From Candidatus Spongiisociaceae bacterium (GTDB lineage: Bacteria > Actinomycetota > Acidimicrobiia > Spongiisociales > Spongiisociaceae), in contig CBDCOH010000002.1 of assembly GCA_965219685.1 (NCBI GenBank), forward strand, positions 64,001 through 128,000: a DNA stretch of 64,000 nucleotides, read 5' to 3'. The position numbers and the translations under genes are program-made. The notes beneath the pieces are model-generated. The model did no database searches. It was not told where the DNA came from and saw nothing but the letters and a program-made list of their open reading frames with translations. Positions 1-7,123 of this stretch are shown in pieces. Position 1 is the stretch's first letter; the number at the start of each line of letters is the position of its first letter.

Positions 1-1019
1 CGTACGACATAGCTATTCCCATTCCCAAGCTGAGTCTGACACACAATGTCCGTAGGCTGTCAGGCTTGGACGTGGACTCGCTTGATGCGATTTTCGACCG
101 AGAAGACATAGACGAGCGGTACCGAATGCGACTGCGTATGGCGTTTGCTCCCACGGAGACCCACGTCCATCAGGCTGACATAGCCATCGACGATCTTCCA
201 CCTACCGGAACCATCCTGGCTGGCATAACCAACAAGGTCATAAGTCAGGCCCGACTGACGAATAGTTTCGCCGAGCTGTTTCCGACAGTACATGCTTATG
301 TTCGCGATCGTTGTTTCGGACGCGAAGTCGATCCAGACGATGAATCCCTGCGCTCCCATCTGAATCGTCTGGAGTTACAGGAGGGGATCGCAGGATACCT
401 AGCAGCCGAGATCGGTAATCTCACTGTCGAGCGACGCCCCATCGAGTTCGAGAAGGCCGATTTCCGGCTGTCCCAGACGAGGCCTTTCACCTGGCGACGA
501 GACCTCCCACCGCTGGAGGCGCAGAAGACAGTCTTCAACTATGTGGCCACCTACAATTCCTTCGAGCGTCAATTCGCCGGATTCCTGGATCGCTCTGATG
601 ACGTGTTGCGGTTTGCAGCGTTGGGTACGACAGAGCAGGGATCTTCAGGGACTGCCTTCCGTGTCGACTACCTGAAGCCAACCGGCGCCATTGGTTTCTA
701 CTACCCGGACTGGGTGGCCGTTCAGCAGACGGAAGAGGGGGAGGTGAACTGGATCATCGAGACGAAAGGGCGCGTCTGGTACGGCACCGAGGCAAAAGAC
801 GCCGCCATGAAGAACTGGTGCGAGTCAGTGAGTCGGACGAGCCTCGTGCCGTGGCGGTACCTCCGAGTCAATCAATCCGACTTCCGGCCGGAGGCGGAAT
901 CGCTCAGGGAGCTCGTTGTCGGGCTCATCGGCGAGGCAATGTTCGCTGAGCGTGACCAACGAGAAACAACCATGTCCCGAGCGGAGATCCGTCAAGCACG
1001 CGACGAAGGCCGTGCATGA
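1..1019 (+). CDS. Type III restriction enzyme Res subunit, C-terminal part (5' truncated by window)
   Basis: Frame open from base 3. PD-(D/E)xK nuclease motif YYPDWV...IIETKGR and 'E..FA.FLD...V.RF' typical of Res C-termini. Confidence 0.8.
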   Translation, partial: YDIAIPIPKLSLTHNVRRLSGLDVDSLDAIFDREDIDERYRMRLRMAFAPTETHVHQADIAIDDLPPTGTILAGITNKVISQARLTNSFAELFPTVHAYVRDRCFGREVDPDDESLRSHLNRLELQEGIAGYLAAEIGNLTVERRPIEFEKADFRLSQTRPFTWRRDLPPLEAQKTVFNYVATYNSFERQFAGFLDRSDDVLRFAALGTTEQGSSGTAFRVDYLKPTGAIGFYYPDWVAVQQTEEGEVNWIIETKGRVWYGTEAKDAAMKNWCESVSRTSLVPWRYLRVNQSDFRPEAESLRELVVGLIGEAMFAERDQRETTMSRAEIRQARDEGRA

Positions 1020-1411
1020 TGGCCGTTGTTATTGACGCTTCAACGGCGGCCGCGTGGTGCTTTCGTGACGAGGAGGGTACTGGAGAAGCCGACGCTGCTA
1101 TTGCGCGGTTGTCAGTTGAGACCGGGATTGTCCCGGGACTCTTCTGGCACGAGATGCGTAACGTCTTGGTAGTAGCCGAGCGGAGCGGACGGATCACATC
1201 TACAGACGTCGAACGCAACCTGTATCACCTCCGGACGCTACCTCTCCTCACAGACGATGACCAGAGCGACATCGATACGGTGGTTCTAGCGCGACGTCAT
1301 GGTCTGAGCGGCTACGACGCCGCCTACCTCGAGACCGCGAAACGGCACGGTGCAGATTTGGCGACTCTCGACAGGAAGCTCGCAACCGCTTCTGCTCGGG
1401 AAGGTTTGTGA
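1016..1411 (+). CDS. vapC: VapC-family PIN-domain toxin
   Basis: VIDAS...E..N...SGYDAAYL...LATLDRKL PIN motifs; ATGA overlap with upstream gene. Confidence 0.9.
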   Translation: MMAVVIDASTAAAWCFRDEEGTGEADAAIARLSVETGIVPGLFWHEMRNVLVVAERSGRITSTDVERNLYHLRTLPLLTDDDQSDIDTVVLARRHGLSGYDAAYLETAKRHGADLATLDRKLATASAREGL

Positions 1412-1442: not shown

Positions 1443-2747
1443 CTAGCGCTTCCCGCTAACCCTCGCCGCCCAACCGTTCCTGGTCGCATCTGTAGTGACC
1501 GGCAGTGATGCCAGCGATCTGTGGTTGATCGACGCGACCCGGTCGGGCGGGCGACTATCCGCAAGGCGGGCTTCGGGGAACCCTGCCAGGAAGCCCTCGA
1601 CGGCGATCGTCGTCTCGAGGCGGGCGAGGGCGGCGCCTAGGCAGAAGTGGCGGCCGCGTCCGAACGAAAGGTGCGGCACCGAGGAAAAGGTCCGATCGGC
1701 CAGGTAGTGGTGTGGATCGGCGAAGCGGGTCGGGTCGCGATTGGCGGCAGAGATGACCGCGCTCACGGGATCTCCCGCCTTGATGACCGCGTCGCCGAGT
1801 TCAGTGTCCTCGACCGTGAGTCTGCGGAGCCTCGTGATTGATGGCTCGGAACGGAGCGTCTCCTCGATTGCGCCGGGCAGCAAGTCCGGCGAGGTTCGCA
1901 CCTTGTCGAGTTGGTCGGGATGGGTGAGCAGGCAGTGGATGGTGTTCGCTATCAGAGCCGTCGTCGTCTCGTGGCCGGCGATCAGCAGATGGATCGCCGT
2001 GAACAGCGCTTCCTCGAGAGTCATCCGCTCGGAACCCACCAGGGCGGCCAGTTCTGTGAGGAAGTCGTGCTCCGGCTGTTCCGATCGGGCGTCCAGCAGC
2101 CCGAGAATGAGCGATCGCCACTCGACCAGGGACCGGTCGAGGGCGCGGGCGTAGACGGGAACCGGGGCGGGGGTGCCGAAGAACCGGATCACCTCCGCTG
2201 ACCAGATGGGGAACCTACGGCGATCCGGTTCGGGAACCCCGAGCAACTCCGCGATCACGGTGACCGGGACCTGCTTGGCCAGACCGGCTACCACGTCGAA
2301 CTGTTCGTTCCGCAGGCGGGCCTCGTTGATCAGGACGGCGACACGCTCCGAGATGGTGGTACCGAGGTGAGACACGGCCTTGGGTGAGAAGGAAGGGCCC
2401 AGGATGCGTCTCAATCGGGTGTGCTCGGGAGGATCGGTCTGGATCAGGCCCTGCTGGTTGTAGTGATGGCGGAGCGTGCCGACTTCGCGATGGACGGCGG
2501 CGGGCAGCCGACCGATGAACGTCTTGTTGAAACCGAAGTTGGAGAACTCGCCGGGTGAGAGCAGGACCTTCTCGACCAGGTCGTAGGACGTGACGAGCCA
2601 CTGCTCGAGGTAGGGACTCCAGTAGACAGGTGTGGTCTCCTGAAGCCGTTCGTACCAGGTATGGGGGTGGCGCGCGAACGCTCCCGAGGCCAGGGCCTCC
2701 TCGATCCGATCGATGGGTTCAGGCTTCGTCGCCAATGGTGGCCCCAC
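1443..2747 (-). CDS. Cytochrome P450
   Basis: AGHETT I-helix, EETLR (ExxR), heme motif FGRGRHFCLG. The start may be TTG at 2735. Confidence 0.95.
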   Translation of the reverse strand: MGPPLATKPEPIDRIEEALASGAFARHPHTWYERLQETTPVYWSPYLEQWLVTSYDLVEKVLLSPGEFSNFGFNKTFIGRLPAAVHREVGTLRHHYNQQGLIQTDPPEHTRLRRILGPSFSPKAVSHLGTTISERVAVLINEARLRNEQFDVVAGLAKQVPVTVIAELLGVPEPDRRRFPIWSAEVIRFFGTPAPVPVYARALDRSLVEWRSLILGLLDARSEQPEHDFLTELAALVGSERMTLEEALFTAIHLLIAGHETTTALIANTIHCLLTHPDQLDKVRTSPDLLPGAIEETLRSEPSITRLRRLTVEDTELGDAVIKAGDPVSAVISAANRDPTRFADPHHYLADRTFSSVPHLSFGRGRHFCLGAALARLETTIAVEGFLAGFPEARLADSRPPDRVASINHRSLASLPVTTDATRNGWAARVSGKR

Positions 2748-5831: not shown

Positions 5832-6944
5832 ATGAGCGGGATGCGTGCCGCCGTCTACCACGGCGCCCGCGACATCAGGATCGAGGAGATCGGTGTTCCC
5901 GAGCCTGGACCCGGAGAGTTGCTCCTCGAGGTGCACGCAGCCGGAATCTGCGGCACGGACGCATCCGAGTGGGATCACGGACCGATGATGTTCCCCGTGT
6001 CCGAGCGCAACCAGTGGTCCGGTCATGCAGGTCCGATGGTTCCCGGTCACGAGTTCGGCGGGCGGGTGGTCGACCGCGGCCCCGGCGTGGAGGGTTTCCC
6101 GGACGGCACGCTGGTGGCGAGCGGCGCCGGAGTGTCGTGCGGATCGTGCGGTCCGTGCCGGGCGGTCATCACCAACTTCTGCGAGCGATACTTCACGGTG
6201 GGCCTGCAGAGGAACGGAGCCCTGGCCCAGTACGTGGCGGTTCCGGCGGGCGTCTGCCTGGATGTGGGTGAGTTGGGCCTCGACGACGACGGGGCCGCCT
6301 TGGTCCAGCCCATGTCGATCGCCCTCCACTCTCTCCGCCGGGGCGAACCGGATCGCGGGGACTCCGTGGTCGTGATCGGGATCGGTGGGGTTGGCGCCTT
6401 CCTGGTCTACGCGGCCGCCCGGTCCGGCCTGCGGGTGTTGGCCGCCGATCTCGATCCGGAACGCCTGCGGATCGCCGCTGCACTCGGCGCTTCTCTCACC
6501 CTCCAGGTCGACCCGGATGAACCCCTGGCCGGCCAGCTGGCAAGCGCTCTCGGAGGACGGGCTGCCGCTGCCTACGAGGTGACGGGAGTCCCTTCGGTGC
6601 TGAACGCGGCGCTCGATGTGGTAGCGCCGCGGGGGCGGGTGGTGGCGATCGGGCTCGGCGCGGCGCCCGTGCCGGTCGATGTGCGGTCCCTCACGCTGCG
6701 GGAGCTGTGCCTGGTGGGCACCAACGCCCACGTCTTCGCGGCCGACTTCGCTGATGCCGCCCGGCTGGTGGCGAGCCGCGCCGCGGGTTGGTCCGACGTG
6801 GCGCCGGTCGCCCTGCCCCTCGACCGCGTGGTGGCCGACGGGCTCCGTCCGATGGTGGACCGGAAGCCCGAGCGGATCAAGACCCTCGTCGACCCCTGGA
6901 CGACCACCATCCGACCGGCGGCAGGAATAGTGAATAGTGAATAG
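5832..6944 (+). CDS. Zn-dependent alcohol dehydrogenase (MDR; butanediol dehydrogenase-like)
   Basis: GICGTD, GHEFGG, structural-Zn C..C..C.......C, GIGGVG. Confidence 0.9.
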   Translation: MSGMRAAVYHGARDIRIEEIGVPEPGPGELLLEVHAAGICGTDASEWDHGPMMFPVSERNQWSGHAGPMVPGHEFGGRVVDRGPGVEGFPDGTLVASGAGVSCGSCGPCRAVITNFCERYFTVGLQRNGALAQYVAVPAGVCLDVGELGLDDDGAALVQPMSIALHSLRRGEPDRGDSVVVIGIGGVGAFLVYAAARSGLRVLAADLDPERLRIAAALGASLTLQVDPDEPLAGQLASALGGRAAAAYEVTGVPSVLNAALDVVAPRGRVVAIGLGAAPVPVDVRSLTLRELCLVGTNAHVFAADFADAARLVASRAAGWSDVAPVALPLDRVVADGLRPMVDRKPERIKTLVDPWTTTIRPAAGIVNSE

Positions 6945-6987
6945 TGAATAGTGAATAGTGAATAGTGAATAGTGAATAGTGAATAGT
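6925..6987 (+). repeat. Heptamer tandem repeat (GAATAGT)9
   Basis: Nine perfect units, overlapping the ADH stop codon. Confidence 0.95.
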
Positions 6988-7030
6988 GAGAAGCTATATA
7001 CGTTAGCAGTGATTAAGTAGATGTGGTAGC

Positions 7031-7079
7031 CACCACTCACGACTCACCACTCACGACTCACCACTCACGACTCACCAGC
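7031..7079 (-). repeat. Heptamer repeat CACCACT/CACGACT alternating (inverted relative to 6925 array)
   Basis: Six alternating units plus one degenerate unit; reverse complement is AGTGGTG/AGTCGTG. Confidence 0.9.
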
Positions 7080-7123
7080 CACCACCACCAGCTAGCTAAA
7101 ATCGACCGCGGCCCGACTGAAAG

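Follow-up and report, generated by a model that had tools for sequence, protein, structure and literature searches.

The window, the whole stretch of 64,000 nucleotides that was analysed, opens inside a cassette of type III restriction-modification (RM) genes (Table 1). The res gene, which encodes the restriction subunit, begins ahead of the window's first base, near G000:C2:62164-62170 (L002 8164/8170), and its product has 949 aa. A full-length type III Mod gene lies upstream of res (626 aa; PADLOC MTase_III PDLC03633, E = 1.8e-123), and the mod stop overlapped the start region of res. Res matched PADLOC REase_III (E = 2.6e-16) and contained a ResIII helicase domain (Pfam PF04851, E = 3.8e-17). 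The Walker A (GSGKT) and DEAHH residues, and the nuclease motif residues P846, D847, E864 and K866, were invariant across 32 homologues. The nuclease core scored under the cut-off of Pfam RE_endonuc (20.1-22.6 bits, cut-off 23.4; window part E = 9.5e-5), and the AF2 model was confident over it. A Foldseek search with the model of the Res C-terminus gave no match at E <= 0.001, and weak matches to PD-(D/E)XK nucleases (TnsA, E = 0.015).

The stop codon of res overlaps the start of vapC, a PIN-domain toxin gene. VapC matched Pfam PF01850 (E = 1.6e-12; 48.5 bits, cut-off 23.6) and had no match among the PADLOC families; its nearest solved relative by sequence was PAE0151 (2fe1, E = 5.5e-14). In the alignment of 13 VapC homologues (A2), D6, E45 and D100 were invariant and D118 was at least 90% conserved, and the window copy has all four residues. 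The catalytic residues of VapC were conserved across phyla. From the retained Walker A, DEAH, PD..ExK and PIN acidic residues, both Res and VapC look functional.

Table 1. Positions of the features at the res-vapC locus, numbered from the first base of the window
Feature	Position	Strand	Remarks
res (type III restriction subunit), 3' third	1..1019	+	ORF enters the window at base 3; stop TGA 1017-1019
Putative PD-(D/E)XK-type endonuclease core of Res (..YYPDWVAV..NWIIETKGR..)	525..776	+	Residues 175-258 of the 338-aa window part
C-terminal tail of Res, 30 aa, IGEAMFAERDQRETTMSRAEIRQARDEGRA	927..1016	+	Extra relative to tail-less Res homologues
Core motif of the tail, TTMSRAEIRQARDEGRA	966..1016	+	Common to the extreme C-termini of free VapB-type antitoxins
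GAAGG, Shine-Dalgarno-like site for vapC	1005..1009	+	From tail Glu-Gly codons; seen in the sequence
Overlap ATGATG	1016..1021	+	res TGA 1017-1019; vapC ATG 1016 or 1019; seen in the sequence
vapC, PIN-domain toxin gene	1016..1411	+	130-131 aa; Pfam PIN
Cytochrome P450, next gene, convergent	1443..2747	-	E = 2.1e-28

Translated from the + strand, the C-terminus of the Res ORF reads ...GLIGEAMFAERDQRETTMSRAEIRQARDEGRA. Tail-less Res homologues stop at about ..L(x)xL(x)G, and the close ones (at most 73% identity) were about 30 residues shorter at the C-terminus. The last 45 aa of Res had no Pfam match and no Phd/YefM, RHH or AbrB DNA-binding domain, the polypeptide upstream being Res itself. In the AF2 model the tail was predicted as a helix (301-319), a loop (320-325) and a second helix (326-334), with pLDDT of 70-78. 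A sequence search of the PDB with the tail profile returned chance-level matches alone (E >= 0.31), and placed the tail in no solved structure.

An earlier note on this DNA had stated that the Res ORF ends in an antitoxin-like tail and that its stop overlaps the vapC start; the sequence confirmed both. Two ATGs are candidate starts of vapC, at 1016 (ATGA overlap) and at 1019 (TGATG overlap), and stop and start overlap with either. Because a T(G/A)ATG-type start was present in 7 of the 12 other Res-vapC junctions compared, the start of vapC is probably the ATG at 1019. Junctions at other Res-vapC loci were of the types TGATG, TAATG, ATGA and GTGA, and free antitoxin-vapC pairs had TTGA. The GAAGG site lies 6 nt from the first ATG and 9 nt from the second, and GA(A/G)GG occupied the equivalent place in 11/13 tail-bearing loci. 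Since the Glu-Gly codons also provide the ribosome-binding site of vapC, the tail motif may be conserved in part at the RNA level.

The same note had held that the locus has no separate antitoxin gene, which the ORFs around the junction bore out. Those in alternative frames, at 818..949 (+), 925..1218 (-) and 1026..1172 (+), had no Pfam match, and the next gene is the convergent P450. The Res tail was the sole antitoxin-like element at the locus. An internal start in res, at the Met of ..AMF.. or of ..TTMS.., would yield a hidden antitoxin peptide of 15-26 aa; M924 was retained in at least 90% of the 32 aligned sequences, and in the window GAGG stands just 5' of its ATG. However, only 2 nt separate this GAGG from the ATG, no conserved ribosome-binding site preceded either Met, and the first Met was missing in 5/13 and the second in 6/13 tail-bearing loci. 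For want of conserved Met codons and of a conserved ribosome-binding site, a separate mini-antitoxin was rejected as extremely improbable.

Related VapCs elsewhere were preceded by free Phd/YefM or RHH antitoxins of 83-85 aa, with the same motif at their ends and the same overlap of stop and start. Their C-termini read ..KMTKEEILAARHEGHRF (L016), ..KSMSIAEILEARDEGRR (L131) and, in the genome of the window, ..SLTTEDILKFRDEGRR. Free antitoxins with both motif and overlap occurred at 2 loci, among 120 database proteins, in a phylum sample and at 65/80 metagenome loci. The ending '..EI...R(D/E)EGR', which the earlier note had given for the antitoxins of the VapC subfamily, holds in these data. The genome of the window carries a second antitoxin-toxin pair, with an RHH antitoxin (G000:C2:4108279-4108581) whose tail is very similar to the Res tail. 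This second antitoxin could neutralise VapC in trans.

Alignment of 13 Res tails with 24 free antitoxins by hhalign (probability 90.3%, E = 1.5e-6) placed columns 16-45 of the tails opposite columns 52-81 of the 83 in the antitoxins. The aligned part is the last 30 residues of the Phd/YefM antitoxins, after the Phd/YefM fold, in agreement with the earlier description of the tail as antitoxin-like. An HMM built from free antitoxin tails recognised 24/132 Res tails (E < 0.01 at genome-sized Z), and the window's own tail, as a 60-aa fragment, gave marginal scores of 11.1 and 13.4 bits (E = 0.24-1.4 at Z = 85020). A search of all 85,020 six-frame ORFs of the genome did not report the Res ORF at E <= 10, whether with an HMM of 100 antitoxin C-termini or with one of 64 metagenome antitoxin tails. 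By these comparisons the tail is homologous, at the family level, to the toxin-neutralising C-terminal segment of free antitoxins, the single tail of the window being marginal. In VapBC structures, VapB tails cover the PIN active site, and the segment after the Phd/YefM fold inhibits the toxin. Res-linked pairs fell in the 'A/W-R with VapC R47' class of free pairs, a co-variation of tail and VapC that is confounded by phylogeny and was given no weight.

Tailed Res upstream of vapC, which the earlier note had proposed to look for in independent lineages, recurred. A search for Res homologues gave 1389 matches; the tail was judged on the 120 listed (61-100% identity) and was present in 120/120 of these, and the fusion is not unique to this assembly. 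A survey of genome contigs from many phyla found 79 Res loci, 72 of them evaluable. The tail was present in 10/72, and vapC abutted the stop in 9 of these 10; an adjacent vapC was found in 0/62 tail-less Res loci, with at least 400 nt of downstream sequence in 51/62. In the window's own family, tail and vapC were present in three further genomes. The tailed Res subfamily spans 120 or more sequence clusters. Besides the lineage of the window, it was present in Pseudomonadota, Acidobacteriota and Gemmatimonadota. A search of the plasmid collection gave just two distant helicase matches (28% identity). The arrangement of tail and vapC is not an assembly accident.

The tail persisted where vapC had been deleted (L040, G017 and G018) or damaged (start codon lost in L004, VapC shortened in L025). 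The converse, vapC without the tail at a Res locus, was not seen among the loci examined. Decay of vapC with the tail retained, and never the reverse, is as expected if the tail is the antidote. Decay at these five loci would also be compatible with tail and vapC being neutral leftovers of a deletion, VapC being inactive or neutralised in trans, for example by the second antitoxin of the genome with its very similar tail. Such relics are nevertheless very improbable, given the retention of the tail in every listed homologue down to 61% identity. In addition, E939, G947 and R948 of the tail motif were invariant in the Res alignment (A1), the Gly and Arg codons of the tail varied synonymously, and the catalytic residues of VapC were kept across phyla.

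In the tree of 118 VapCs, a single branch (support 83) separated the 13 Res-linked ones from all others. An AU test on a 42-row subset of 73 Res rows did not reject a single clade of the 14 tail-bearing Res rows (p-AU = 0.224). A single ancient capture is compatible with both the VapC and the Res tree. Given a single origin of the fusion, tail and vapC would occur together through the maintenance of one evolutionary event, and not through many independent ones. The ancestral state was most likely an ordinary phd-vapC module 3' of res. A deletion would have removed the DNA-binding and dimerisation domain of the antitoxin and added the final ~30 antitoxin codons to the reading frame of res, and the original overlap of stop and start would have survived it. 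The alternative raised at the outset, an accidental deletion fusion, thus stands in part: a deletion was probably the origin, but rather than being a chance product of this genome the fusion is old, and has been retained and passed between phyla.

The cassette was accessory, the Res C-terminus occurring in 6/61 related genomes and in 0/7 of the same-genus genomes searched. This, and the spread over many phyla, fits a mobile element that gains from addiction, and the fused pair might serve to stabilise the RM cassette or island by post-segregational killing, with no sensing of phage. However, RM systems already count as addictive (PMC3874152, in the portion used here), and loci that have kept res and lost vapC exist. 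Killing after loss would also work only if the antidote decayed faster than the toxin, and a tail borne by an enzyme of 949 aa does not obviously do so. Addiction as the whole function is therefore distinctly unlikely.

The preferred reading, with a probability of about 0.55, is that a type III Res took over the neutralising C-terminus of a Phd/YefM-type VapB and kept the partner vapC behind it, VapC being stored inactive and freed when Res is disturbed. The anatomy of the locus, the family-level homology of the tail, its strict co-occurrence with vapC and the conservation across phyla are established. From the sequences we infer that the tail binds and neutralises VapC and, with greater reserve, what would trigger release. 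Res itself probably holds VapC in check. VapC would be made solely by ribosomes that have just completed a Res chain, and the fresh VapC would be captured by the tail of that same Res. The terminal helix and basic end of the tail would cover the acidic PIN active site, and the restriction enzyme would carry the RNase in an inactive state. Loss, degradation, inhibition or reshaping of Res in infection would set VapC free to cleave RNA and arrest the cell as a second line of defence. By analogy, this would be a PrrC-like guard, in which loss or inhibition of Res releases an RNase.

Antitoxins of classical modules are labile. The 949-aa carrier, probably stable, is unlike them, a point against a VapC release switch.

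A Res that is probably not labile would suit stable docking better than a release switch. The tail could dock an active VapC as an accessory of the restriction complex, with the RNase acting when and where Res engages unmethylated DNA, or with a VapC dimer bridging two Res complexes. The anatomy, the co-occurrence and the coupling fit such a recruited effector too, and in L049 and L050 vapC is flanked by res on one side and a UvrD-like helicase gene on the other, like an embedded component. The tail is, however, homologous to an antitoxin segment with an inhibitory role, VapC left unrestrained should be toxic, and vapC has been lost with res intact in L040 and G017. Recruitment of an active VapC is possible, though on the unlikely side.

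Returning to a VapC held inactive by the tail, Res might act as a two-stage sensor. Engagement of unmethylated DNA (through an ATP-driven switch or a collision or cleavage state), or a phage factor that blocks or destroys Res, would strip the tail off VapC and cause RNase shutdown. This form of the trigger is unlikely; if it were true, the restriction enzyme itself would be the antitoxin of an abortive-infection toxin. Neutralisation of VapC by the tail, should it occur, would account for 'orphan' VapC toxins behind restriction genes, and a minimal peptide of ~17-30 aa would define the VapB-VapC interface of a large subfamily. It would also provide a simple genetic system for asking whether bacteria keep a guard on type III restriction to meet the counter-measures of phages. 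The locus further presents a toxin-antitoxin module domesticated, probably, through deletion of its regulatory half.

Links between RM and toxin-antitoxin systems have long been discussed, and to our knowledge the sole well-studied physical link between RM and a toxin is that of PrrC with a type I enzyme. The PrrC anticodon nuclease is kept latent by the type Ic enzyme EcoprrI, both masking and triggering having been shown (PMC12707154; bioRxiv 10.1101/2024.01.29.577857; each in the portion used here). As with PrrC, the RNase gene of the window is placed inside or beside an RM operon, and the restriction enzyme would mask the RNase and unleash it on disturbance. PrrC differs in being an anticodon nuclease of ABC-ATPase type with a type I partner and no fused antitoxin-derived peptide, whereas VapC of the window is a PIN protein, not a PrrC/RloC homologue, with a type III partner.

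Matelska et al. (2017; PMC5499597) reported PIN-like nucleases in transcriptional coupling with subunits of type I RM. These resemble the present case in that PIN toxins stand beside RM genes, some of them without an antitoxin, and differ in their type I contexts; in the portion of the article used here, 'type III' is absent from the main text and no fused antitoxin segment is described. According to the same portion, direct interaction between toxin-antitoxin and RM systems had not been shown. Neither a Res-fused antitoxin segment nor a type III Res-VapC pairing was found in the portions of full text covered by the literature search. Matches to 'Pin domain' in the literature referred to a helicase element of EcoP15I and not to VapC.

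EcoP15I is a canonical type III enzyme, of composition Mod2Res1 (PMC4490356, in the portion used here). The cassette shares with it a Mod methyltransferase and a Res whose motor is SF2 helicase-like, the C-terminal nuclease of Res being putative here, and the sizes are similar (here Mod 626 aa and Res 949 aa). In contrast to canonical type III RM, Res of the window has an extra C-terminal tail of 28-30 aa and a coupled toxin gene. Cleavage by type III enzymes depends on ATP and on unmethylated sites in inverse orientation.

Phd/YefM-type VapB-VapC modules (solved relatives by sequence VapB46, 6jqy; VapB5, in 3dbo; Phd, 3hs2) have in common with the locus a PIN VapC with four acidic residues, the C-terminal motif and the overlap of stop and start. 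Unlike them, Res-vapC has no separate antitoxin and no Phd/YefM or RHH domain, and its antidote segment forms the C-terminal end of an enzyme of 949 aa. Lacking the DNA-binding and dimerisation domain, the pair has no autoregulating repressor. Within the literature covered, the Mod-Res-VapC cassette is a new hybrid of RM and toxin-antitoxin systems. Its widespread Res subfamily would be a second route to a PrrC-like end, readable from sequence, with the antidote peptide carried covalently on the restriction enzyme.

The window, at C2:64001-128000 of the source genome (G000), began within a long forward-strand ORF (res) ending in ...GLIGEAMFAERDQRETTMSRAEIRQARDEGRA, and two ATGs, at 1016 and 1019, each overlapped its TGA stop; the antitoxin-like Res tail with a stop overlapping the vapC start, as described in an earlier note, was thereby read in the sequence. 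Relatives' junctions (T[G/A]ATG) made the second ATG the more likely vapC start, and on the sequence the junction showed vapC translation physically coupled to the end of res. A hairpin across the res stop and vapC start could make vapC initiation dependent on ribosomes completing res; hairpin sites in the junction region occurred at chance frequency (1 found vs. 1.1 expected). The last kilobase of res yielded no sigma-70-like promoter (a weak negative). The vapC product was a PIN domain protein (PF01850, E 1.6e-12, 48.5 bits, cut-off 23.6) with acidic active-site residues D6, E45, D100 and D118, the first three invariant and D118 at least 90% conserved among 13 homologues. Starting upstream of the window, res encoded a 949-aa protein that had a helicase domain of the ResIII family (E 3.8e-17) and, below threshold, a match to a restriction-endonuclease domain. 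Its Walker A, DEAH and PD..ExK residues were invariant, and both Res and VapC retained catalytic residues. The res gene lay directly behind that of a 626-aa methyltransferase, a full-length match to PADLOC's type III Mod model (E 1.8e-123), with genes for a UvrD/PD-(D/E)XK helicase-nuclease and a RadC-like protein farther upstream. As the earlier note had claimed, the locus held no separate antitoxin gene: overlapping ORFs in other frames had no Pfam match, and the next gene was a convergent cytochrome P450. An internal start within res yielding a separate antitoxin peptide is unlikely, because neither a Met codon nor any ribosome-binding site was conserved.

Res residues 700-949, used as the query, had 1389 matches, and all 120 best matches listed (61-100% identity) ended in the tail ..ERDxRxTTMSxEE[IV]RQARDEGRA with small variations; with the tail also present in other genera and phyla, the fusion is no accident of this assembly. 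Within the window's family, three genomes from two other genera (G009, G014 and G010) had a tailed Res and an abutting VapC homologue (58-64% identity). The search for independent lineages with tailed Res ahead of vapC found several phyla. A scan with one genome per species gave 79 Res loci from many phyla, 72 of them evaluable, and 10 of these had the tail (Gammaproteobacteria/Pseudomonadales, Alphaproteobacteria, Vicinamibacterales, Bryobacterales and Gemmatimonadota). In 9 of the 10, vapC began a few bases at most from where res stopped; the sole exception, locus L040, had a convergent gene 5 nt past the stop. An adjacent vapC was found in none of the 62 tail-less loci (51 with at least 400 nt of downstream sequence), a set that includes the degenerate L029; the divergent tail of L054, missed by a strict regular expression, was classed from alignment A3. 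Tail-less Res relatives of up to 73% identity ended about 30 residues earlier, which makes the tail an addition to a Res that is ordinary in other respects. Some Res matches and VapC-cluster members shared a longest-contig size (183316, 29099, 3566), which hints at Res and VapC on the same contigs, as linked pairs beyond the loci read.

The tail motif recurred on free antitoxins of related VapCs, both Phd- and RHH-type, which bore out the C-terminal motif that the earlier note gave for this subfamily. A second vapC copy in G010 (49% identity) and a copy in G018 (44%) followed 85-aa antitoxins with a Phd/YefM domain over residues 1-60/65 (Pfam E 1e-10 to 5e-12), C-termini ..GVKMTKEEILAARHEGHRF or ..GIKMTREEILAARHEGHRY, and a stop overlapping the vapC start (TTGA). 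This antitoxin family had 208 database matches; PF02604 and the end ..MSxEEILAARHEGHR[FYL] were present in 120/120 antitoxins listed (best 120 of 208). Among 29 VapC loci inspected by eye in a 300-genome sample of the phylum (no reliance was placed on L123, from an unpublished genome), the upstream genes were free Phd- or RHH-type antitoxins, many ending ..[ED][IL][IV]xxxxEEGRR, and none was Res. Of 80 VapC loci (40-51% identity) retained from a metagenome scan, none had a Res-like gene upstream, and 65 had a Phd-like antitoxin ending at most 10 nt from the vapC start (e.g., ..KSMSIAEILEARDEGRR and ..PMTIEEILEARDEGRRF). The motif is thus portable, a C-terminal element shared by antitoxins whose DNA-binding domains differ and always beside this VapC subfamily. 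The source genome also encoded a distant VapC (37% identity) outside the window, whose RHH-type antitoxin ended ..SLTTEDILKFRDEGRR, a terminal motif that it shared with the Res tail. The Res-VapC arrangement may be a relic in which VapC is covered in trans by this similar antitoxin, and cross-neutralisation of that kind is conceivable.

The tail homology was short. When 13 Res tails were compared profile to profile with 24 free antitoxins, the probability was 90.3% (E 1.5e-6), with tail columns 16-45 aligning to antitoxin columns 52-81 of 83, exactly the part after the Phd/YefM fold. With HMMs of free antitoxin C-termini only, the window's Res ORF was not reported at E ≤ 10 among the genome's 85,020 six-frame ORFs; its tail as a 60-aa fragment scored 11.1 and 13.4 bits (E 1.4 and 0.24, Z = 85,020), relatives' tails scored up to 24 bits (E 1e-4), and E was below 0.01 for 24 of 132 Res tails. 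What carries the case is the alignment at family level, a terminal position and a gene junction that are identical, and co-occurrence with vapC, not the window's own score. The motif's Glu-Gly codons (GA[A/G]GG) lay 6-9 nt ahead of the vapC start and resembled a ribosome-binding site, so part of the motif conservation may be at the RNA level, although its Gly and Arg codons varied synonymously.

In a FastTree phylogeny of 118 VapCs, the 13 Res-linked ones formed one side of a branch (support 83). In a Res tree of 73 C-terminal cores with tail columns left out, 14/14 tail-bearing rows fell inside one 37-row group, and well-supported branches needed only one change; a tree holding the 14 together was not rejected (p-AU 0.224, 42-row subset). 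The simplest reading is one old event, in which a deletion removed the 5' half of a phd-vapC module lying behind res and fused the antitoxin's last ~30 codons to res; the two genes were then inherited together and passed from phylum to phylum. The cassette is accessory: 6 of 61 related genomes had the Res C-terminus, as did 0 of 7 same-genus genomes searched. The Res-VapC pair may be an addiction device only, serving the cassette. Decay was one-sided. vapC was deleted in L040, in G017 (tail end corrupted to ..ARCQDRT) and in G018 (a 150-aa Res remnant left, its stop lost), had lost its start codon in L004 (ACG instead), and encoded a VapC truncated to 119 aa in L025; no tail-less vapC of this clade was seen among the loci examined. 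An antidote tail would be expected to leave this pattern, vapC lost with the tail kept and never the reverse. Locus L029 had a Res with a degenerate tail (..LTLREQVQWRAAGHNLKLDVDE), no vapC and a 594-aa ATPase-like gene 240 nt downstream; another defence gene may have replaced the toxin there.

The probability that the Res-borne tail serves as a functional antidote to VapC was put at about 0.55. An AlphaFold model of the last 338 Res residues was confident overall (pLDDT 86.2). At lower confidence (70-78), the tail in this model prolongs the last domain helix (301-319), passes into a loop (320-325) and ends in a short helix (326-334), which would fit an appendage that is exposed and in part flexible. 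As in VapBC complexes in general, the tail would bind VapC and cover its acidic pocket, and VapC would be stored inactive on the restriction enzyme in amounts of about 1:1; alternatively, VapC may stay active and be docked by the tail as an accessory subunit. Release from an antidote tail might, more speculatively, follow Res loss or proteolysis, a phage anti-restriction factor, or a conformational switch of Res on foreign DNA, any particular trigger being much less probable than the antidote function.

The cassette parts recurred beside tailed and tail-less Res homologues in many phyla (UvrD-like 47-80%, RadC-like 38-77% identity), and as a conserved defence unit the cassette may extend beyond Mod-Res. 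In L049 and L050 the order was RadC-Mod-Res-VapC followed by a UvrD-like gene (27% identity), with vapC inside the cassette and not at its end. Elsewhere in the window, two heptamer arrays, unusual for this G+C-rich sequence, lay at or just past the 3' end of ORF 5832..6944.

Coordinates of features in the window, the source genome (G000) and the other loci (L numbers)
Feature	Location	Strand	Remark
res stop TGA	window 1017-1019	+	read from sequence
vapC ORF	window, to 1411	+	130-131 residues
Hairpin	window 1008-1024		GGCCGT-GCATG-ATGGCC
Cassette RadC-like, UvrD/PD-(D/E)XK, Mod, Res	L002 2707-11019 = G000:C2:56707-65019		L002 is upstream DNA; extends into window 1-1019
Second, distant VapC with its RHH-type antitoxin	G000:C2:4108279-4108943
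Heptamer tandem array	window 6925-6989		GAATAGT x9.3 (100% matches)
Heptamer tandem array	window 7031-7090		CACCACT x8.7
vapC deletion	L040 5845-5852
vapC start codon loss	L004 about 1875-1880
Truncated VapC	L025 5847-6206
Decayed toxin side	L208 1436-1500
Decayed toxin side	L209 1431-1883
Degenerate-tail Res locus	L029 3800-5933
vapC inside cassette	L049 and L050 5833-8824

By membership, the locus combines a type III RM system with a VapC toxin. Two features that define a type II TA module were lacking, a separate antitoxin gene and a DNA-binding antitoxin domain. Passages of Matelska et al. 2017 (PMC5499597) describe PIN nucleases beside type I RM genes, with the antitoxin sometimes absent, and state that a direct TA-RM interaction was not shown; the phrase 'type III' is absent from its main text. 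A full-text literature search, supplements excluded, found no description of a Res-fused antitoxin segment. The closest likeness by function is PrrC/EcoprrI, described as an 'RM guardian' in passages of a 2025 review (PMC12707154) and of Payne et al. (bioRxiv 10.1101/2024.01.29.577857), although VapC here is non-homologous to PrrC and its masking by Res is a proposal. The Res-tail/VapC hybrid is real and widespread, is without description in the literature searched, and is akin to two known kinds, TA modules and RM guards.
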